Below are positions 13,979-50,712 of a stretch of 64,000 bases of DNA, piece after piece. The stretch's first letter is position 1, and each line of letters begins with the position of its first letter. The notes under the pieces are model-generated. The model was not told the origin of the DNA and ran no database searches. It worked only from the letters and a program-made list of their open reading frames with translations. Both the position numbers and the translations under genes were made by a program. The DNA is from Candidatus Woesearchaeota archaeon (GTDB taxonomy: Archaea > Nanobdellota > Nanobdellia > Woesearchaeales > WJKL01), in contig JAZGHU010000015.1 in assembly GCA_036481345.1 (NCBI GenBank), positions 3,315-67,314 of the forward strand. Reading direction: 5' to 3'.

Positions 13979-14356
13979 TTATTTCCTCTCTAAACTCTTA
14001 GCTCGTTTTTTATCACTAAGATTTAATTCAATAATCATTAAGTTAGATGGATTGAACGGATAGAATGTCTTTGTTCCATCCTTTTTTGTCGATTCAATTC
14101 CTTGAATATAGACTTTTGTTGATTTCAAGTTGACTCTGTCAATTTTTCCTGTTTTTCCCTTGAATTGTCCTCTTAAAATCTTAACAGTATCGCCTTTTCT
14201 AACTGTGATGTTTCTTTTTTTGTGTTTTTCTTTAAGTTCTTTTGACAGATGAACTGACATGAACTTATTTCTAATATGTAATGGAGCATTATATCTATAT
14301 TTACGCTGCTTTCTAGGCGCTTTGCTTTTAATCCATTCTTTTGAAAATCTTTTCAT
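13979..14356 (-). CDS. rpl24: ribosomal protein L24 (uL24)
   Basis: KOW domain, operon position. Confidence 0.8.
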   Translation of the reverse strand: MKRFSKEWIKSKAPRKQRKYRYNAPLHIRNKFMSVHLSKELKEKHKKRNITVRKGDTVKILRGQFKGKTGKIDRVNLKSTKVYIQGIESTKKDGTKTFYPFNPSNLMIIELNLSDKKRAKSLERK

Positions 14357-14360
14357 TTTT

Positions 14361-14762
14361 TCATACCACGATATTTGCTAATTTTGAAATTGCAGGCCAT
14401 CTATCACAAGCTTCTTTTGCAATAGCACCTTTGAAAATTGTCCCTTTTGGATTTCCTTTATCATCTTTTAATACAACTGCTGCATTATCTTCAAATTTGA
14501 TTCTTGTTCCATCTGGACGCCTGTATTCTTTTCTTTGTCTTACAATAACAGCATAAACAACTGTTTTTCTAATGTCTGGCTTGCCTGATTTTACAGAAGT
14601 GACTACTAAATCTCCAACTCCTGCTGCAGGCATTCTGCCTTTTACTCCTTTGTAGCATTTTACACCAAATATTTTTAATATTTTGGCTCCGGAATTATCA
14701 CAAGTTTTGATTAAAGTTCCTGTTGGCAATCCTCTTGTAACTCTTGCTTTTACTGCTTTCAT
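14361..14762 (-). CDS. rpl14: ribosomal protein L14 (uL14)
   Basis: highly conserved uL14 sequence. Confidence 0.9.
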   Translation of the reverse strand: MKAVKARVTRGLPTGTLIKTCDNSGAKILKIFGVKCYKGVKGRMPAAGVGDLVVTSVKSGKPDIRKTVVYAVIVRQRKEYRRPDGTRIKFEDNAAVVLKDDKGNPKGTIFKGAIAKEACDRWPAISKLANIVV

Positions 14763-24323: not shown

Positions 24324-24743
24324 ATGAGAATAATAATAATTGGAATGATAATTTTGAGTGTTTTACTTATTTCTGGTTGCCAAAAGGATATGCCTCCAGA
24401 AGAATTAATGAAATGTGATGTTGATGAAGATTGTATTGTTGTAGAAGAAAGGGGCTGTTGTGGATGTCCTGCTGTTATTAATAAACAGCACGAGGACTGG
24501 TGGAACAATAGAAAAGTTGTAGAATCATGTCCTGGAAGAGAGTGTGAGCTTTGTGCCCAATATTATGAACCAGCAAGATGTGAAGATAATGTTTGCACAG
24601 CAAATTATGGAAGAAATCCATGTGATAATGAAGGTTATTGTTTATCTTCTGAAACACAAGAATGTGAAGTATGGCATGTAAATGCAGGAGCTGGAATATG
24701 TGGTTGTTCTGAATCAGAATCTTGGTGTGCTAAATTAAAGTAG
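24324..24743 (+). CDS. small Cys-rich secreted lipoprotein (24 Cys in about 115 mature residues)
   Basis: signal peptide with lipobox LLISGC, repeated CxxC/CGC patterns; 3' end overlaps the hef stop, convergent. Confidence 0.4.
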   Translation: MRIIIIGMIILSVLLISGCQKDMPPEELMKCDVDEDCIVVEERGCCGCPAVINKQHEDWWNNRKVVESCPGRECELCAQYYEPARCEDNVCTANYGRNPCDNEGYCLSSETQECEVWHVNAGAGICGCSESESWCAKLK

Positions 24744-26957
24744 ATAATCGCTATCAACTACTTTTCTGATCTCTTTTGCTTTCTTTTCTCCTATTTTTGA
24801 TACTTTTTTTAGCTGTTCTTCTTTTGCATTTACTATTTTCTTTATTGTTTTGAATTTCTTAAGAAGTTCTTTTGCTAAGGAAGGACCTACTAATGGCAAA
24901 GAAGAGACAACATATTCCTGCTGTTCTTTAATTGATAATGGTTTTTTGTCAGCATGCATTGAGAATTCGTTTGATGAAGAATCTTGTTCTCTTTTTGCAA
25001 TTGTATGAATCAGTTCTGCTGATTCTTTTGAGTTTTTTGTGAAAAGGACAGGGATTTTATAGGAGATTGCGATTGTTGCTAACATTCCTCTGATTGCATT
25101 TGGATGTATGTTTCTTGCTGAATAAATATCTGTTTCCCCTTCAACAATTACCAAAGGGCATTCAAAGTTTCTTTTTAATTGTTTTATTTGTTCAAGTAAT
25201 CTGCCATCTATGATTGACTGTGCAAAATCTTCAACTTTTTTGAATTCAACACCGCAACGGCTGCTTAGGATGTAATCAGCTGAATCTAGTTTATCTAATT
25301 TAATTGAAACGTCTTTATCTATCAATTCTTTTATTATTCCAGAAGCTTTTTCTCTGTGATCTGCAAAGACTTTTATTTCTTGTTTTTTCTCATATTTTGC
25401 AACTGTAGATCTTGGAGATTTGATAGTTTCTAATGTCTGTTGTTTTAATGATAATTTTGATTTTAAGTCAGTGAGAATTCTATACATTCTTTTTTCTTTA
25501 TGATGTGCAGACCACCTATACCCTTCATCTCTTGTGTTTTGAGTCATCAATATAGTACATTTCCCTTTTTCTAATCTCCCAGTACGCCCTCTACGCTGAA
25601 TATGACGAATTGCAGATGGAATTGGCTCATAAAATATAACTGAATCTACTTTTGGAATATCTAGGCCTTCTTCTCCAACAGATGTTGCAACAAGAATATT
25701 GAATTCATTATTTCTGAATTGTTCAAGCATTTCTTTTTGCTGTTTTTGAGACAATCCAGATTCTCCTTTTTTCTGCTGTCCTACAAAAAGATTTGCTTTG
25801 ATGTTTTTGAGTTTGTTTAGTTCATCAACAATGTTTTTTGCATTATCACGATACTGGTTAAATATCATTATTTTTACTCCTGGTTTAATCTCTTTTTCAA
25901 CTAATTTTTGCAATTCAATCAGTTTTGGATGTTGGATTCCATCTTCAAACATCTTTTCTGTCTTGATAAATGCAGATCTGAAATTCAAGTCTGCAATGAT
26001 ATTTTTTACTGCTTTTGTTTTTCCTGAATAACCATCATTTTTTAGTTTTGTCAGGTATCCATGTAAAGCAACAACTCCTTGTGTTTCTAATAATTCTAAA
26101 CCATGCTGAACTTTCATAATTTCTGCTAGAACTGAAATTGCTGTCCAAAGAGTAAAATCTTTTTCTCCAGAAGCTGCACGGCCCCTTAATTGTGCCTGGA
26201 GCTTTAGTAAATCTGTTTTACTTACGAAATTAATATCTTTTCTTTGGAGAATTCCCCATTTTTTCAATTTTTGAGTTCTATCTTGGATAATATTCTTCAA
26301 AAATCTTTGAACCTGTTCAAATGGGGGAGTTAGATCAACTTTTATCCAATTGAGTTCTACTTCTTGTATGTATGGCTTAACATCTGGATCATTATCTGTT
26401 CTTACTTCAACTTCTTCTATGAAAAGATTTGAAGTAACTTCTCTTATTTTTTCTAGATCAGACCCAGGAGAGGCTGTTAAAGCAAGGATTCTTGGAAAAT
26501 CTGCTTTTTTATGATATTGTTTTGCCACAAACACATAAGCATATTCTCCAACTGCCCTGTGTGCTTCATCAAAAACTATCAATGAAACTTCTTCTAAGTT
26601 GATTCTTCCTGTTATGATGTCATTTTCAAGACCTTGAGGGGTTGAAAAGATAACTTTTGCTGTTTTCCAAAGTTCTGCTCGTTTTTCAGGCTTGATCATT
26701 CCTGTGAATACTGAAAAAGATTCTTCTGGAAGCTCCATATATTGCTTGAATGTTTCAATGTGCTGCTCTACTAATGGTCTTGTTGGAGCTAAAATCAGAA
26801 CTTTTGAATTAGGGTATTGCTTGAATCTTTGCACTGCAAGCATCATAGATACTGCTGTTTTGCCCATTCCAGTTGGAAGCACAACTAATGTGTTGCTTTG
26901 AACTGCTGTTGCAAGTATTGTTTCTTGATATAATCTTGGAGTAAAATCTTTAAGCAT
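24735..26957 (-). CDS. hef: Hef-like SF2 helicase fused to an XPF/ERCC4-type nuclease with C-terminal HhH2
   Basis: Walker A PTGMGKT, DEAH, helicase C domain, ERCC4 nuclease motif region, HhH tail. The ORF track starts at 27038, but the probable start is MLKDFTPR at 26957. Confidence 0.75.
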   Translation of the reverse strand: MLKDFTPRLYQETILATAVQSNTLVVLPTGMGKTAVSMMLAVQRFKQYPNSKVLILAPTRPLVEQHIETFKQYMELPEESFSVFTGMIKPEKRAELWKTAKVIFSTPQGLENDIITGRINLEEVSLIVFDEAHRAVGEYAYVFVAKQYHKKADFPRILALTASPGSDLEKIREVTSNLFIEEVEVRTDNDPDVKPYIQEVELNWIKVDLTPPFEQVQRFLKNIIQDRTQKLKKWGILQRKDINFVSKTDLLKLQAQLRGRAASGEKDFTLWTAISVLAEIMKVQHGLELLETQGVVALHGYLTKLKNDGYSGKTKAVKNIIADLNFRSAFIKTEKMFEDGIQHPKLIELQKLVEKEIKPGVKIMIFNQYRDNAKNIVDELNKLKNIKANLFVGQQKKGESGLSQKQQKEMLEQFRNNEFNILVATSVGEEGLDIPKVDSVIFYEPIPSAIRHIQRRGRTGRLEKGKCTILMTQNTRDEGYRWSAHHKEKRMYRILTDLKSKLSLKQQTLETIKSPRSTVAKYEKKQEIKVFADHREKASGIIKELIDKDVSIKLDKLDSADYILSSRCGVEFKKVEDFAQSIIDGRLLEQIKQLKRNFECPLVIVEGETDIYSARNIHPNAIRGMLATIAISYKIPVLFTKNSKESAELIHTIAKREQDSSSNEFSMHADKKPLSIKEQQEYVVSSLPLVGPSLAKELLKKFKTIKKIVNAKEEQLKKVSKIGEKKAKEIRKVVDSDYLL

Positions 26958-27055
26958 TGTTTTGATTAGGCAGAATTCTTTTAAATAGTTTATGGGGTGG
27001 TGTCCAGTGACCAGTGGGTAGTGTAAATTCACACTCACTACATTCGTGCAGGCAC

Positions 27056-29167: not shown

Positions 29168-29467
29168 ATGCTTAAAATGAAAAAAGTGTCTGAAACTTAT
29201 GAAATGAAAGTGTTCACTGATACTGGTGAATATTTTGGTGATATTGAAGAAAGCATAATGACTTCTACTAAGGTATTTGGATGGAAGGTTAAAGCTACTA
29301 AAGGATCTTTCTTGAATAAAGTCCTTGGATCTGCTAAAGGTGTTATTGTTCCACATCAATTAGTTAAAGCTGTGGGAGATATCTTGATTATAAGCAAAAC
29401 AGCAGTGCCATCTTACTCTCCTGAAGAAGCTGGTGGAGAAGAAGCATCTGAAGGAGCTTTAGAATAA
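29168..29467 (+). CDS. PRC-barrel domain protein
   Basis: about 80-aa PRC-barrel-like core followed by an acidic tail. Confidence 0.5.
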   Translation: MLKMKKVSETYEMKVFTDTGEYFGDIEESIMTSTKVFGWKVKATKGSFLNKVLGSAKGVIVPHQLVKAVGDILIISKTAVPSYSPEEAGGEEASEGALE

Positions 29468-33271: not shown

Positions 33272-33856
33272 TCATTGTATAATCTTAATAAGTTCAGGTT
33301 CTTTTGGTTTGTGATATCCAGAAGATGTACGCAAAACTGCTAATTCTCTTTCTAATTGAATATTTGCCCACCTTGAATCAACAATTGGATGGTCCTTAAT
33401 TTCATTCATTTTAGAACACCATTCATCCATAGAATAAGCATAGTTAGAATAAAAATGATATGAGCGACCAGATAAAAGAATAAACCCCGGATTTAATTTG
33501 TTCTCTTTTATGAAATTTTGAACTTCTTTTAAATTTTCATCACTGCAAGGAACTTTAAAATCTACTAAAAGTAAATGTTCCTCTAATCCATCATTTAGTA
33601 AGACCTTAGATCCAATTCCAGCGTAATAATCATCAAAAGCATTTTCATAATCAGCATTATACCGCATTCTTTCAACTTGTCCTAATTCTTTTTCTATTGT
33701 TGAAACCGGATGAAAATCTTCATAAATTAGTCTATAATCTATCTTCCCTAAGTCAAACGAATCGTCTATAAATTTATACACAATCAAACAGAAATCTTTG
33801 ATATTGTTACCTTCTGCTATTGATCTTAGGATCTCACTCAGTTTTTTGGGTTCCAT
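33272..33856 (-). CDS. hypothetical protein with possible archaeo-eukaryotic primase (Prim-Pol)-like motifs
   Basis: LLLVDFK followed about 50 aa later by LLSGRSYHFY, reminiscent of AEP motif II sG+rGyH; then IVDSRW. Weak, by-eye inference only. Confidence 0.3.
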   Translation of the reverse strand: MEPKKLSEILRSIAEGNNIKDFCLIVYKFIDDSFDLGKIDYRLIYEDFHPVSTIEKELGQVERMRYNADYENAFDDYYAGIGSKVLLNDGLEEHLLLVDFKVPCSDENLKEVQNFIKENKLNPGFILLSGRSYHFYSNYAYSMDEWCSKMNEIKDHPIVDSRWANIQLERELAVLRTSSGYHKPKEPELIKIIQ

Positions 33857-34426: not shown

Positions 34427-34435
34427 AAAATAAAT

Positions 34436-34573
34436 GCGGAGGAAGGGTTTCGAACCCTCGTAGGCACTAAGCCAATAGATGACTTACAAATGGTCGTTTC
34501 ATCGCACTCTTGACGAGCACTCATCACTCAAATGCCTTGAGTCTATCCCGTTTGACCACTCCGGCACCTCCGC
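34436..34573 (-). tRNA. tRNA-Leu(CAA), class II, with a 55-nt intron at the canonical 37/38 position
   Basis: hand-folded. Acceptor GCGGAGG/CCTCCGC, 3-bp D stem, anticodon stem ATAGA/TCTAT with loop CTCAAG|intron|A, 15-nt variable arm, T arm GAGGG-TTCGAAA-CCCTT. Confidence 0.75.
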
Positions 34574-34628
34574 ATAAGCTAAAGAAGAAAATAGATGTTT
34601 TTAAAGATTACTAAAAATAAAGAAATAA

Positions 34629-35036
34629 TTAAGACAGTTTTGTTAATCTGCCTTCGATTTCACTAAGCTCTGCTTCAAGTTTTTCAAGCTCTGACATTTC
34701 TCTTGGCTTTTCCACTTCTATTGGAGGAGCCACTTCTTTCGGAGCTTCTTTTTTTGCAGCAGTCTTTTTGGGCTTTGGCGCTGCTTTATGGGGCTTAGCT
34801 CTTAGGCCTGATTTTGGAAGCTCTGTTTTAAGCTTTCTTACTAATGCCAGGATATCTTTCATAGCTTCTTTTAATTTTATTATCTCTGCTTCTTTCTCTT
34901 TTCTCACTTCTTTGAATCTTTCAAATCTTTGAAGATATTGAAGAGCTTCTTTAGAAGATTCTAGCAGAGATCTTCTTATTTCTATTGGATCTTTCATTCC
35001 AACATAAAACATTGATTCTTCTTTTTCTTTAGGCAT
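34629..35036 (-). CDS. small coiled-coil protein, paralog 1 of a tandem triplet; K/P/A-rich C-terminal tail
   Basis: shares the FYV...coiled-coil core with the two upstream ORFs. Confidence 0.35.
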   Translation of the reverse strand: MPKEKEESMFYVGMKDPIEIRRSLLESSKEALQYLQRFERFKEVRKEKEAEIIKLKEAMKDILALVRKLKTELPKSGLRAKPHKAAPKPKKTAAKKEAPKEVAPPIEVEKPREMSELEKLEAELSEIEGRLTKLS

Positions 35037-35046
35037 TTTCTAACCT

Positions 35047-35274
35047 CTAAAGAGTAGTTGGTTCAAATAATGTTTTGTCTACAAAGACTACTTTTCTTTC
35101 TACTTCTTCTAGACCTGTGTGCCAAAGTTCAAGCTCTGCATCTTCTTCATTTTTTAGCTCGTTGATCTTAGCTAATGTTTCTTTAGCATCTTCTATCTTA
35201 TTCCTTATCATGTTCATTACGTCTAGAACATCTTTGTATTCTTCAATTCTTACATAAACAGGCATTTCTTCCAT
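35047..35274 (-). CDS. small coiled-coil protein, paralog 2 (75 aa, core domain only)
   Basis: P[IV][FY]V.[IL]E.Y ... W ... RK[VL]..DK.LF pattern shared with 35290..35769. Confidence 0.35.
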   Translation of the reverse strand: MEEMPVYVRIEEYKDVLDVMNMIRNKIEDAKETLAKINELKNEEDAELELWHTGLEEVERKVVFVDKTLFEPTTL

Positions 35275-35289
35275 ACTATCGACCTCTTT

Positions 35290-35769
35290 TTATTTTTGTG
35301 CTGCAAATAATGCTTTATCAGCATATAGTAATTTTCTTTGGATATCCTTTAATTGAGATTCCCATTTGTTGAACTCTTTATCTTGATCTTCTTTGAATTC
35401 AGAGACTCTTGATAAGCTATCTGAACCTTCTTTCAGAGTATTTTGAATTGAGCTAACTTCATTCATCAATTCTCTGTATGATTCAAGGTAAACAAAGATT
35501 GGTTTTTTCAATCTAAGATCATCTCTTTCTTCTAATTCATCCCTTGTTTTTTGTATTGCATAATCTTCAGCTCTTTCAGTGGGGCTTGGTCCTTTTGGGA
35601 CATCTGGAAGCTCTAAGTCAGGAGCTTTTTGTTTTTTGAATTCAGGAATCTCTCCTGGAGAAGGAAAGGTAGGCAGTTCATCTTTTGATGGAGGAGCTGC
35701 TGGTACTTCTAATCCTCTTTTTTCTGGTATAGCTTTCTTTCTTGTTTTAAATAAATCTGTAAATCTCAT
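35290..35769 (-). CDS. small coiled-coil protein, paralog 3, with Pro-rich N-terminal extension
   Basis: C-terminal 70 aa align with 35047..35274; the N-terminal 85 aa are P/E/K-rich. Confidence 0.35.
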   Translation of the reverse strand: MRFTDLFKTRKKAIPEKRGLEVPAAPPSKDELPTFPSPGEIPEFKKQKAPDLELPDVPKGPSPTERAEDYAIQKTRDELEERDDLRLKKPIFVYLESYRELMNEVSSIQNTLKEGSDSLSRVSEFKEDQDKEFNKWESQLKDIQRKLLYADKALFAAQK

Positions 35770-35859
35770 AATAATTACACCTCCCCAATAACTAATCTAT
35801 GAATTCTGACATTATTTAAACTTTCGTTAGTATTCTAAAATAGTGACAAAATAAAAGAA

Positions 35860-36759
35860 ATGTTTTTATCTATTCTAGATTTAGTTTACCTTATGAAGGA
35901 AGCAAAGCATTATAAGAAATTGCAAGGAAAGAAAATTCAGTGTGAGATGTGTCCTAGAAAATGCATAGTTAAAAATGGAGAGAAAGGATTTTGCAAAGCA
36001 AGAGAAAATAAAGAAGGGAAATTTTATAGTTTAGTTTATGCTGCGCCATGTTCTGTTAATGTGGATCCAATTGAGAAAAAACCGTTATTTCATTTTTTAT
36101 CAGGCACTAAAACTTATTCTGTTGGAACAACAGGCTGCAATCTAAGATGTAAGTTTTGCCAGAATTGGCAGATCAGTCAAGCTGTTCCAGAGGATGTTCC
36201 TTTTCTTGATTTAAGTCCTGCTTCTGTTGTCGGGGATGCAATTGTAAAAGGATGTGAAAGTATTTCTTATACATATACTGAACCATCAATATTTTTTGAA
36301 TATGTTTTGGACACAGCAAAGCTTGCTAGAAAAAAAGGATTAAAAAATATTATTGTATCAAATGGTTTTGTCAATCAAAAACCACTGAAAGAAATGTGCA
36401 AAGTTATTGATGCTGCTAATATTGATTTGAAATCTTTTTCAAATGAATTTTACAAGAAATATACTGGGGCTTGGTTAAAGCCTGTGCTTGAAAGTTTGAA
36501 GACAATTAAGAAAGAAGGTGTTTGGCTGGAGATAACTAATCTTTTGATTAATAGATTGAATGATGGTCCTGTTGAGATTAAGAAAATGTGCAAGTGGATT
36601 AAAGAAGAATTAGGAGAGGAAGTTCCAATACATTTTTCTAGATTTTTCCCTAATTATTTGATGCAAGATATAAGTCCAACTGATAAAGATAAATTGTATG
36701 AGGCAGAGAAGATTGCTAAAGAAGTTGGATTAAAGTATGTTTATTTAGGCAATATTTAA
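35860..36759 (+). CDS. radical SAM enzyme of the AmmeMemoRadiSam/PFL-activase-like family
   Basis: CEMCPRKC N-terminal Cys pair and the CNLRCKFCQN radical SAM CxxxCxxC cluster. Confidence 0.7.
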   Translation: MFLSILDLVYLMKEAKHYKKLQGKKIQCEMCPRKCIVKNGEKGFCKARENKEGKFYSLVYAAPCSVNVDPIEKKPLFHFLSGTKTYSVGTTGCNLRCKFCQNWQISQAVPEDVPFLDLSPASVVGDAIVKGCESISYTYTEPSIFFEYVLDTAKLARKKGLKNIIVSNGFVNQKPLKEMCKVIDAANIDLKSFSNEFYKKYTGAWLKPVLESLKTIKKEGVWLEITNLLINRLNDGPVEIKKMCKWIKEELGEEVPIHFSRFFPNYLMQDISPTDKDKLYEAEKIAKEVGLKYVYLGNI

Positions 36760-45540: not shown

Positions 45541-45861
45541 GGTAGGGGCGTACTTAACTGACGGTGATTTATATCGCTGAGGAAAGTCCACCCACTGAGT
45601 ATGTGTCACTGCTGTTATGGCAGATGGGTAATACCATGGCAATGGGTCAGAAATACACGTCCATGTATCGGGATGAAAATGGCGAAGTTTGTTGCGAAGC
45701 AAACGAGTTAACCCAAAGACTATGTTGCGTGGGAACGGTGAAACCCGAATCCTGACTGGTGCAAGTGTCGTTGAACACGCTAAGTAGAATGTTAAGACAG
45801 TCTGCCCATAGCTTTTAGTTGTGGAGACTGACAAAAGGTGGCTTATCACGCTTCTACCTAC
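45541..45861 (+). ncRNA. rnpB: RNase P RNA (archaeal type)
   Basis: P4 5' strand GAGGAAAGTCC, P4 3' strand ACAAAAGGTGGCTTA, P1 pairing GGTAG/CTACC, local GC far above genome average. Confidence 0.7.
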
Positions 45862-50610: not shown

Positions 50611-50712
50611 GGCGATCGTAGTTTAATGGTAGAATATAAGGTTGTGGTCCTTATGGCGCGAGTTCGATTTGGTCAAACGGTTCGTTTGGCAACGAAAGTC
50701 TCGCCGATCGCC
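50611..50712 (+). tRNA. tRNA-His(GUG) with genomically encoded G-1 and a 28-30 nt insertion (putative non-canonical intron) in the T-arm
   Basis: hand-folded. G-1 opposite discriminator C, acceptor GCGATCG/CGATCGC, anticodon stem TAAGG/CCTTA with loop TTGTGGT, T stem GCGAG...CTCGC interrupted by TGGTCAAACGGTTCGTTTGGCAACGAAAGT. Confidence 0.65.

Follow-up and report, generated by a model that had tools for sequence, protein, structure and literature searches.

Woesearchaeota, one of the DPANN groups, are abundant and uncultured; the genomes of these archaea are very small, and almost nothing is known of how their cells work. Among the described systems that come closest to the locus analysed here, SepF joins a terminal membrane motif to an oligomerising domain through a flexible linker (10.1101/2020.10.06.327809). 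In the MatP-ZapB-ZapA Ter linkage, a coiled coil joins DNA-bound partners to membrane- or division-bound ones, and ZapB itself (E. coli, 81 aa) is essentially one long coiled-coil helix. The DivIVA/GpsB N-terminal domain, in a small membrane-associated scaffold, places a short N-terminal element ahead of a long coiled-coil helix. The window, a stretch of 64,000 nt from a Candidatus Woesearchaeota contig, carries three adjacent small genes, A, B and C, that share parts of these layouts. Like ZapB, B (about 75 aa) is little more than a single helix; A follows the SepF order of a short hydrophobic and basic motif, a flexible linker and an oligomerising part; and the short element followed by a long helix recalls DivIVA/GpsB. 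Literature searches returned no prior description of the trio.

Gene order, expression signals and neighbourhood

The three genes lie on one strand, with gaps of 15 nt between A and B and 10 nt between B and C, exactly as an earlier note on this DNA had given their coordinates, strand and spacing (Table 1). Of 87 loci drawn from about 80 species, 85 retain the order A-B-C; the intergenic gaps have a median of 6 nt (65 loci), and the trio stays intact where either flank is replaced. A BRE/TATA-like element upstream of A is a putative promoter: when the 120 nt preceding A are searched with a relaxed BRE/TATA motif, 27 of 63 loci contain it, compared with 2.2% of random windows of that length. 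The relaxed pattern and this random-window background control were used in place of a strict TATA pattern, which under-counted promoters. GAGGT is found ahead of B and of C as well as A, and 58 of 65 loci have an SD-like site before B. The T-rich tract after C, which has counterparts downstream of C in other loci, is likely an archaeal oligo-T terminator. Together, the short gaps, the SD sites, the one upstream TATA-like element and the oligo-T tract 3' of C support the earlier reading of the trio as a single operon. The intron-containing tRNA-Leu reported beside it is real by its Rfam score; ARAGORN did not detect it at 34435-34573. Its intron of about 55-58 nt sits in the anticodon loop, after position 37, and at least 25 other loci likewise carry both exons immediately 3' of C. 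This tRNA is a neighbour, outside the protein function of the operon.

Table 1. Features of the trio and its surroundings; all coordinates are positions within the 64,000-nt window, with the trio on the minus strand.
Feature	Position	Strand	Description
Gene A	35290..35769	(-)	ORF, 159 aa: N-terminal putative anchor motif, Pro-rich spacer, C-terminal coiled-coil core
Gene B	35047..35274	(-)	75 aa: bare core, one long helix, residues 10-70
Gene C	34629..35036	(-)	ORF, 135 aa: N-terminal helix module, Lys-rich linker, terminal helix
BRE/TATA-like element AAAGTTTAAATA	35813..35824	(-)	44-55 nt upstream of A start codon; sequence reading
Shine-Dalgarno-like GGAGGTG	35778..35784	(-)	8 nt 5' of A ATG; sequence reading
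A residues 1-12 MRFTDLFKTRKK	35734..35769	(-)	Hydrophobic patch, then polybasic run
A spacer, residues 13-88	35506..35733	(-)	Pro-rich, net-acidic, disordered; conserved [DE]-hydrophobic-P sites (P23, P33, P42)
A core, residues 89-156	35302..35505	(-)	Paralogous to B; polar positions K45/Q48 (core numbering)
C helix, residues 9-75	34812..35012	(-)	FYV start, about 8 heptads, polar R45/K48, ends LPKxxLR
C linker, residues 76-112	34701..34811	(-)	Lys/Ala/Pro-rich, disordered; low pLDDT
C terminal helix, residues 113-135	34632..34700	(-)	Near-invariant, acidic, amphipathic; AF2 helix 116-134
T-rich tract	34613..34628	(-)	Abuts C stop codon; sequence reading
tRNA-Leu(CAA)	34435..34573	(-)	Rfam RF00005, 41.6 bits; long variable arm

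Orthologues of A were present in all loci of the set, and A itself is 100% identical to a Woesearchaeota hypothetical protein. A profile search with the A/B core retrieved 916 proteins, and 2,741 representatives at E-values up to 1e-3; the corresponding search for the C family gave 218 matches. B is the most conserved of the three, with a median identity of 58% versus 39% for C and 31% for the A core.

The conserved neighbours of the trio encode an LTD protein, an MJ0538-like protein, ScpB, GyrA, RNase J and PCNA, and RFC, Hef and an AEP-like protein are also encoded nearby. The commonest is the LTD protein (58 of 82 loci), which is divergently encoded on the opposite strand, in most cases at position -1 or -2; it matches Pfam LTD (E = 6.5e-29), begins with a signal peptide and is membrane-anchored at its C-terminus. 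A PCNA gene follows the trio at a distance of 2-5 genes in 37 of 82 loci. This neighbourhood survey showed no gene for FtsZ, SepF, Min or SMC next to the trio, which counts against the scaffold model proposed below, and the conserved neighbours included no AAA ATPase, Vps4/CdvC, CdvA or other cdv gene and no arl gene. The housekeeping, single-copy character of the trio and its DNA-related synteny (ScpB, GyrA, PCNA, RFC, Hef and the AEP-like protein) speak for that model. The conserved neighbourhood may instead reflect slow genome rearrangement in one order rather than a common function.

Sequence relationships and architecture of A, B and C

The earlier note described the three proteins as divergent copies of one domain with a common core of about 70 aa. 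This held for A and B, whose cores share 29% identity over 68 aa (BLASTP E = 3e-17) and align by hhalign with a probability of 99.6% (E = 1.5e-24, alignments of 70-77 sequences); judged from these comparisons, A and B are true paralogues. It did not hold for C, which had no significant BLASTP match to A or B (E = 0.13-1.6) and reached hhalign probabilities of only 0.2-8.5% with deep profiles, shallow alignments likewise not being significant. Neither method demonstrates paralogy of C, and what remains is gapless co-linearity. The first 75 residues of C follow the A/B core in the register B(i) = C(i+4), which was the top offset in both independent comparisons, B with C and A with C. Its score corresponds to z = 3.4-3.9 against full column shuffles and to z = 2.4 (p ~0.015) against heptad-preserving shuffles. 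This co-linearity is suggestive of distant paralogy or of a geometry matched to that of A and B. There is also a weak similarity between the terminal helix of C and residues 42-65 of B (hhalign E = 0.004).

None of the proteins could be placed in a described family, as had been anticipated. Pfam gave only coiled-coil noise for the three single proteins at E-values up to 10 and for 43 C, 46 B and 93 A-type members, and NCBIfam, PADLOC and PHROGs gave no known-family match. Profile searches of the PDB with shallow and deep alignments found nothing under E = 0.03. Foldseek against the PDB, for which single helices are poor queries, found no match for C and one non-significant match of B to GpsB (E = 8.5, probability 0.05). 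Three families that might have claimed the trio, prefoldin, ESCRT-III and archaellum components, had no match in Pfam or NCBIfam. Prefoldin families were absent at E-values up to 10 for the three proteins and up to 0.01 for the 46, 43 and 93 members, Snf7/PspA appeared in no Pfam or NCBIfam scan, and ArlC/D/E and other archaellum components were likewise absent from both. Nor did Pfam match DivIVA, ZapB (for B at E-values up to 10, or in 46 members) or SepF (DUF552; in A or 93 diverse A-type members). On the strength of these profile searches, the A/B core and C are two new protein families.

The domain layouts proposed earlier were borne out: A has about 88 aa of Pro-rich sequence added N-terminally, B consists of the core alone and C carries a Lys/Pro/Ala-rich tail. 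All three proteins have a short hydrophobic N-terminal stretch (PIFV, PVYV or FYV) followed by a helix of about 57 residues. Each helix keeps an unbroken register with 17 heptad core positions, of which the ninth and tenth are always polar throughout the three families, so that polar core pairs (K/Q in A, K/E in B and R/K in C) occupy the same place. A and B both match an A/B-core signature, with a P-hydrophobic-F-V start, Y, a central E-x-K-x-x-E-D, W and a terminal K-L-x-hydrophobic-x-D-K-x-L-F; invariant columns are P5, Y13, E39, K41, D45, W51, K61, D66, K67, L69 and F70, and in B K41, E44 and D45 are invariant. The AF2 model of B is a single helix over residues 10-70 (pLDDT 86.7), while that of C has helices at 17-72 and 116-134 joined by a disordered linker, in which confidence is lowest at 92-105. 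B is very acidic (net charge -8) and the C helix is basic (+9). The core of B is Leu-rich at a positions and Ile/Val-rich at d positions, with Trp, Phe and Tyr within it; by the GCN4 rule of thumb, such usage favours more than two strands.

The flanking segments differ between A and C. The A N-terminus has the family consensus M-G-[FLW]-[LF]-x-[FL]-[LF]-K-K-K-K (MGFLxFLKKKK); 132 distinct N-termini were profiled. Of 77 locus copies, 59 carry the motif, and the exceptions are mostly mis-called starts. The helical hydrophobic moment of the motif is no greater than that of shuffled sequence, and it is not a classical amphipathic helix. We infer that this hydrophobic-plus-polybasic motif binds the membrane. 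The spacer that follows has a family median of 93 aa (range 54-300), 15% Pro and a net charge of -6; across 93 diverse members, conservation of P23, P33 and P42 reaches 90% or more. Long A-type members contained no domain fusions save one apparently chimeric TPP-enzyme fragment. In C, the linker has a family median of 33 aa (range 14-92), 34% K/R and a net charge of +6. A C2H2 zinc finger is inserted in the linker of P0221 and P0250, that is, in only 2 of 43 members scanned. The Lys-rich tail and the insertions favour the scaffold proposed below, whereas the rarity of the insertions counts against it; the tail could bind RNA or acidic lipid rather than DNA. The C-terminal helix of C (residues ~113-134) was overlooked in the earlier note. 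Its family consensus is TELEKLExELxxIExRLxKL, with L120, E121, E123, L124, I127, E128 and L131 invariant in 43 sequences.

A proposed membrane-tethered scaffold and rival explanations

We tentatively propose, with somewhat less than even confidence, that the operon encodes a hetero-oligomeric coiled-coil scaffold of three chains, cytoplasmic but tethered to the membrane and specific to Woesearchaeota-type DPANN. The parts of this proposal differ in strength. Geometry, charge and co-inheritance suggest that A, B and C probably form one complex; its tethering to the membrane through A is close to an even call; and a specific DNA-membrane or division role is rather unlikely. The hetero-oligomer reading draws on the matched heptad geometry and the charge complementarity of B and C, and the single long helices in the AF2 models imply that partners are needed. 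The three helices would zip up, aligned in register, to form a bundle with at least three strands, with acidic B (net -8) pairing with basic C (net +9) and the matched polar layers fixing register and partner specificity. An in-register parallel bundle puts the like charges K, K and R in its first polar layer, which counts against the model. The N-terminal motif of A would attach the bundle to the anionic membrane surface, oligomerisation strengthening this binding as it does for the membrane-targeting sequences of MinD and SepF, and the variable-length Pro-rich spacer would hold the bundle off the membrane. C would supply a histone-H1-like Lys/Ala/Pro tail to engage a polyanion, DNA being the likeliest, and its invariant acidic terminal helix may be a docking or self-regulating peptide. 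The whole would then serve as a housekeeping membrane-nucleoid link or as a division-site scaffold.

The neighbouring genes are consistent with two other readings. With the LTD protein as the most conserved neighbour and a putative membrane anchor on A, the trio might be a cytoplasmic envelope partner that organises or anchors the divergent LTD surface protein, for example as a sub-membrane lattice. We regard this as improbable: the cytoplasmic tail of the LTD protein is about 3 residues long and would leave the trio little to bind, one locus (L088) has a flank without the LTD gene and an intact trio, and the Lys-rich tail and zinc finger of C are left unexplained. The frequent downstream PCNA gene, with RFC, Hef and the AEP-like protein near, could instead point to a replisome- or PCNA-associated DNA-binding scaffold, in which the A N-terminus is a PCNA-interacting peptide and the C tail binds DNA. 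A N-termini such as MGFLDFLKKK resemble the archaeal RFC-L PIP box. However, the full Q-x-x-[LIM]-x-x-[FYW]-[FYW] occurs in none of the 132 N-termini, and the h-x-x-a-a core in 16 of them, never with Gln. Because variable spacing is tolerated in the A motif, a generic hydrophobic-polybasic anchor fits it better than a PIP box. The PIP-box reading was rejected on spacing, and we consider a PCNA-associated scaffold quite improbable.

It also seems improbable that A, B and C are independent, co-transcribed coiled-coil homo-oligomers acting in unrelated processes without a common complex. Homology of C to A or B is not significant, and coiled-coil similarity can come from convergence (PMC3695513). 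Against this stand the co-inheritance of the trio in a fixed order in about 80 species, its movement as a unit, the matched helix length, register and polar-layer position, and the opposite net charges of B and C. A system that resembles ESCRT-III or binds MIT domains, subject to remodelling by a Vps4/CdvC-type ATPase, would have likenesses at the motif level only to build on: a CHMP6-like A N-terminus of the MGxLFGKKK type, a MIM2-like Pro stretch in A and, in C, a basic linker with a MIM1-like terminal helix (IExRLxxL). Snf7 or PspA matched at no threshold, the neighbourhood contains neither an AAA ATPase nor a cdv gene, and the trio cores are single helices of about 57 residues, unlike the five-helix ESCRT-III core of about 150-200 aa (an alpha1-alpha2 hairpin plus alpha3-alpha5). 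SepF is present in Woesearchaeota, and DPANN divide using FtsZ according to a review (PMC7617429). Such a system is exceedingly improbable here. The short hydrophobic, strand-like stretch ahead of the helix in each chain might also suggest a prefoldin-like or other holdase chaperone with beta-strand-plus-helix subunits. Prefoldin, which is built as helix, beta-hairpin and helix, had no Pfam match, and the AF2 models contain no strands or hairpin, with one helix in B and a helix plus the terminal helix in C; the anchor motif and the Lys-rich tail would be left unexplained. The probability of a chaperone is close to negligible.

Retained in all genomes examined, the trio is a promising candidate for a lineage-specific component of core cell architecture; its neighbours are replication and segregation genes, it has a likely anchor and a likely DNA-binding tail, and no described family contains a relative. 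Should it anchor the chromosome at the membrane or label the site of division, it would close the gap left by missing Min/Noc-type systems, and it would also offer a small, tractable protein set (75-159 aa) for biochemistry. If it is a generic scaffold only, the A/B core and C are still two new families deserving family entries.

Comparison with SNAREs and division scaffolds

The trio resembles SNAREs in design only. Its helices have the heptad motif of about 60 aa and the central polar layer of SNAREs, with 57-60 residues, 16-17 layers and conserved central polar layers that include Arg/Gln at the position of C residue 45, and several distinct chains come from related genes. The trio could be a prokaryotic SNARE-like multi-chain zipper, in which register-matched helices with central polar layers (K/E, K/Q, R/K) assemble at the membrane of these tiny symbiotic archaea and drive or control a membrane event such as division, vesicle formation or host contact, without ESCRT or eukaryote-type SNAREs. 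We find this highly improbable. In Pfam, SNARE, syntaxin and synaptobrevin families gave only a noise-level Syntaxin_2 match (E = 0.007) in 1 of 43 C members and none for A or B. Unlike SNAREs, the trio has two polar layers rather than one and no transmembrane segment beside the helix. The putative anchor of A is N-terminal and lies 54-300 disordered residues away from the helix, too far for zippering to draw membranes together.

The scaffold that we favour compares more directly with SepF, Noc and ZapB. Unlike SepF and Noc, the trio has no DUF552 or ParB domain, and its oligomerising part is a single coiled-coil helix; unlike the membrane-targeting sequences of SepF, MinD and FtsA, the A motif does not score as an amphipathic helix. 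It differs from ZapB in having three distinct chains, a polar double layer, a built-in putative membrane motif and an archaeal host. As in Noc, however, the trio would pair a membrane motif with a DNA-binding element. The proposed role would thus be analogous in logic to that of Noc or of the adaptor in the MatP-ZapB-ZapA linkage, with unrelated sequences.

A conserved locus of three small coiled-coil genes

Genes A, B and C, three neighbouring minus-strand genes each encoding a small coiled-coil protein (the trio), lie in the window sequence exactly where an earlier note had placed them, with gaps of 15 nt (A-B) and 10 nt (B-C). The sequence of A matches, at 100% identity, a hypothetical protein from a 'Candidatus Woesearchaeota archaeon' MAG. 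The archaeal RNase P RNA in the window confirms its archaeal origin, and the DPANN affiliation first guessed is correct. A profile of the A/B core, the ~68-aa coiled-coil segment that forms the C-terminal part of A and the whole of B, matched 916 proteins in a word-indexed database and 2,741 representatives at 50% identity in an exhaustive HMMER search, while a C profile matched 218 proteins. All named matches of both were Woesearchaeota or Nanoarchaeota hypothetical proteins. The comparison set comprised the window, eight contigs from metagenomes or MAGs, and the loci of 80 GTDB species. Two cores followed by C, in that order and on one strand, were found in 85 of 87 loci; of the other two, one is cut off by the end of its contig and one has C disrupted by frameshifts. 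The trio was also intact where the upstream (L088) or downstream (L089) flank had been replaced. There is robust support for the trio locus being real; it occurs across the order, and its anatomy is suggestive.

Many GTDB records with a typical Woesearchaeota trio locus are titled 'uncultured Methanosarcinales archaeon' (L010, L014, L017, L018, L020, L022, L023 and others) and one 'Acidobacteriota bacterium' (L061); these titles look wrong.

Across the compared loci, the A-B and B-C gaps each had a median of 6 nt. GAGGT precedes both B and C in the window and an oligo-T tract lies 3' of C. An SD-like site was present 5' of B in 58 of 65 loci. For A, 27 of 63 loci have a BRE/TATA-like element on the 5' side, compared with 2% for random windows. 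Because of the fixed order, the tight gaps, the SD- and promoter-like signals and the persistence of the trio despite flank replacement, we conclude that it is a single-copy, co-inherited operon rather than a chance cluster. In one clade (L063, L064, L068, L073, L075, L076) a near-identical element, AATACTAAACAAAGTTTTTAAAC, is found ~25-45 nt upstream of A and is probably the operon promoter (BRE plus TATA).

Features of the trio and its surroundings in the window
Feature	Position	Strand	Details
Gene A	35290-35769	-	ORF, 159 aa
Gene B	35047-35274	-	ORF, 75 aa
B residues 42-65, ELELWHTGLEEVERKV	35080-35151	-	helix part right after the polar layers
Gene C	34629-35036	-	ORF, 135 aa
C terminal helix, ELEKLEAELSEIEGRL	34632-34700	-	near-invariant, acidic; consensus TELEKLExELxxIExRLxKL
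BRE/TATA-like element, AAAGTTTAAATA	35824-35813	-	upstream of A; read from window sequence
SD-like GGAGGTG	35784-35778	-	before A; read from sequence
tRNA-Leu(CAA)	34435-34573	-	long variable arm, ~58 nt inserted in anticodon loop; Rfam 41.6 bits; identity read directly
Second tRNA	50612-50681	+	Rfam 31.6 bits; not reported by ARAGORN
Archaeal RNase P RNA	45541-45858	+	RF00373, 113 bits
AmmeMemoRadiSam-system radical SAM enzyme	35860-36759	+	TIGR04337, E=1.4e-100; between trio and LTD gene
Small PRC-barrel protein	29168-29467	+	Pfam 21.4 bits, cut-off 21.2; few genes downstream of trio
Stand-alone AEP-like primase-domain protein	33272-33856	-	194 aa; E=3.4e-13
Hef-type helicase + ERCC4 nuclease + HhH protein	24735-27038	-	767 aa

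Relatedness and architecture of A, B and C

The three proteins had been proposed to be paralogues, which holds for A and B. Residues 5-70 of B align without gaps to residues 90-155 of A (29% identity, BLASTP E=3e-17), and the two families, at 70-77 orthologues each, match in hhalign with 99.6% probability (E=1.5e-24). Since P5, Y13, E39, K41, D45, W51, K61, D66, K67, L69 and F70 are invariant in both subfamilies, a likeness that exceeds heptad hydrophobics, A and B are paralogues. The claim fails for C, which showed no significant match to A or B in BLASTP (E=0.13-1.6) and reached only 0.2-8.5% probability in deep-profile hhalign.

Despite this, the first 75 residues of C are built like the A/B core. 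In family-wide hydrophobicity profiles, A, B and C alike run through 17 core positions in a 3-4 heptad register without a break, and positions nine and ten are polar throughout (K41/E44 in B, K45/Q48 in A by core numbering, R45/K48 in C). The gapless register B(i)=C(i+4)=A-core(i+4) was the top offset in independent B-vs-C and A-vs-C comparisons, and aligns FYV of C with PVYV/PIFV, the polar layers together and the helix ends together. Its profile score had z=3.4-3.9 when columns were shuffled in full and z=2.4 (p ~0.015) when the shuffling kept the heptad phase. We read this co-linearity as a sign of paralogy at a very great distance, or else of selection that matched the geometry. As coiled coils are known to mislead homology searches (PMC3695513), we do not call C a paralogue.

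B is the best-conserved member, with a median identity to the window copy of 58% versus 31% (A core) and 39% (C). It is predicted to be a single helix (residues 10-70, pLDDT 86.7) and is very acidic (median net charge -8). Ahead of its core, A carries M-G-[FLW]-[LF]-x-[FL]-[LF]-K-K-K-K in 59 of 77 locus copies, the others mostly having mis-called starts; we profiled this motif over 132 distinct N-termini. A Pro-rich, net-acidic segment (median 93 aa, range 54-300) with three conserved [DE]-hydrophobic-P sites separates it from the core. In C the co-linear module has a basic character (net +9), with LPKxxLR at its end. The module is followed by a disordered Lys/Ala/Pro-rich linker (median 33 aa, range 14-92, 34% K/R) and a terminal helix weakly similar to B residues 42-65 (hhalign E=0.004, probability 8.5%), which might occupy a strand position in a bundle. 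Two members of the C family (P0221, residues ~95-120; P0250, ~90-115) have a C2H2 zinc finger within the Lys-rich linker, the sole domain-level functional hint for the trio.

Searches of Pfam, NCBIfam, PADLOC and PHROGs with the three proteins and 43-93 members per family gave sub-threshold coiled-coil noise only. PDB profile searches returned no match below E=0.03, and Foldseek a lone non-significant one to the GpsB N-terminal domain (E=8.5). Literature searches found no description of the trio proteins. The domain thus belongs, as first suspected, to no described family in these resources, and the trio proteins define two undescribed families. Prefoldin, ESCRT-III and archaellum identities, named beforehand as possible refutations, were excluded by family match, architecture and neighbourhood.

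Genomic neighbourhood

Divergent upstream neighbours in 82 loci included an LTD-domain surface protein (58), ScpB (53), an MJ0538-like protein (52), GyrA (34) and, as in the window, the AmmeMemoRadiSam radical SAM enzyme located between the trio and the LTD gene (24). RNase J (44) and PCNA (37) were found downstream on the same strand, and a PRC-barrel protein, RFC, a Hef-like helicase-nuclease and an AEP-like protein further away. The PRC-barrel gene was near the trio in nine loci; an RFC-like clamp-loader subunit is encoded after the L088 copy (14305-14568). In haloarchaea, PRC-barrel proteins function in archaeal cell division (10.1101/2023.03.28.534520). The region is a housekeeping one, rich in replication and segregation genes, but gene-order conservation confined to a single order is a weak guide to function.

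Gene orientation and GC skew both flip sign just upstream of A (~35.8 kb in the window). In all 82 loci the upstream neighbours are on the opposite strand and the downstream neighbours on that of the trio. This switch could be mere coding-strand bias or a replication-related divergence point.

The intron-containing tRNA-Leu reported beside the trio is real, and was found only by a sensitive local scan, having been missed by ARAGORN and by a whole-window Rfam scan at gathering thresholds. Other species share this arrangement: at least 25 of them have both exons just 3' of C and on its strand (L004, L010, L011, L013, L016-L019, L029, L035, L036, L039, L042, L047, L053, L060, L062, L064, L072, L074, L082, L084-L087), the L039 copy apparently without an intron.

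A candidate complex and its alternatives

We propose a hetero-oligomeric bundle in which the helices of A, B and C pack in register. The findings behind the overall model are the operon, two paralogues and a third protein co-linear with them, long helices that are single in each core, registers and polar layers that match, the opposite charges of B and C, the hydrophobic-polybasic N-terminus of A and the Lys-rich tail of C with its occasional zinc fingers. By a GCN4 rule of thumb, a/d residue usage predicts strand number. The B core, which also contains Trp, Phe and Tyr, is Leu-rich at a positions and Ile/Val-rich at d positions, which suggests a bundle of more than two strands. The N-terminal motif of A would tether this bundle to an anionic membrane, with avidity arising from oligomerisation and the Pro-rich segment acting as spacer. 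The C tail would bind a polyanion, most likely DNA, and the terminal helix would dock a partner or fold back on the bundle. A common complex of A, B and C seems fairly probable; its putative membrane tethering is a more tentative proposition. A membrane-nucleoid or division-site scaffold is the leading candidate among roles, though of low probability. The earlier interpretation of the trio is supported in part, and the observation beneath it is confirmed in part. Two weak points count against the proposal: the first polar layer of an in-register bundle would bring three like charges together, and the motif of A has no classical amphipathic helix character.

Less likely readings of the trio are three independent proteins sharing no complex, an envelope scaffold linked to the divergently encoded LTD protein, or a prefoldin-like chaperone. 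An ESCRT-III/MIT-type system is favoured by motif resemblance and nothing further, whereas DPANN archaea divide with FtsZ according to a review (PMC7617429) and Woesearchaeota encode SepF (10.1101/2020.10.06.327809). The case for a PCNA-associated factor is weakened by the A N-termini, just 16 of 132 of which have PIP spacing.

DPANN genomes contain many comparable unannotated families. The polar layers of the trio helices resemble the central polar layer of SNAREs. Like ZapB, DivIVA/GpsB and SepF-type anchors, the proposed bundle would be a small coiled-coil scaffold with a terminal membrane motif, which is putative here.
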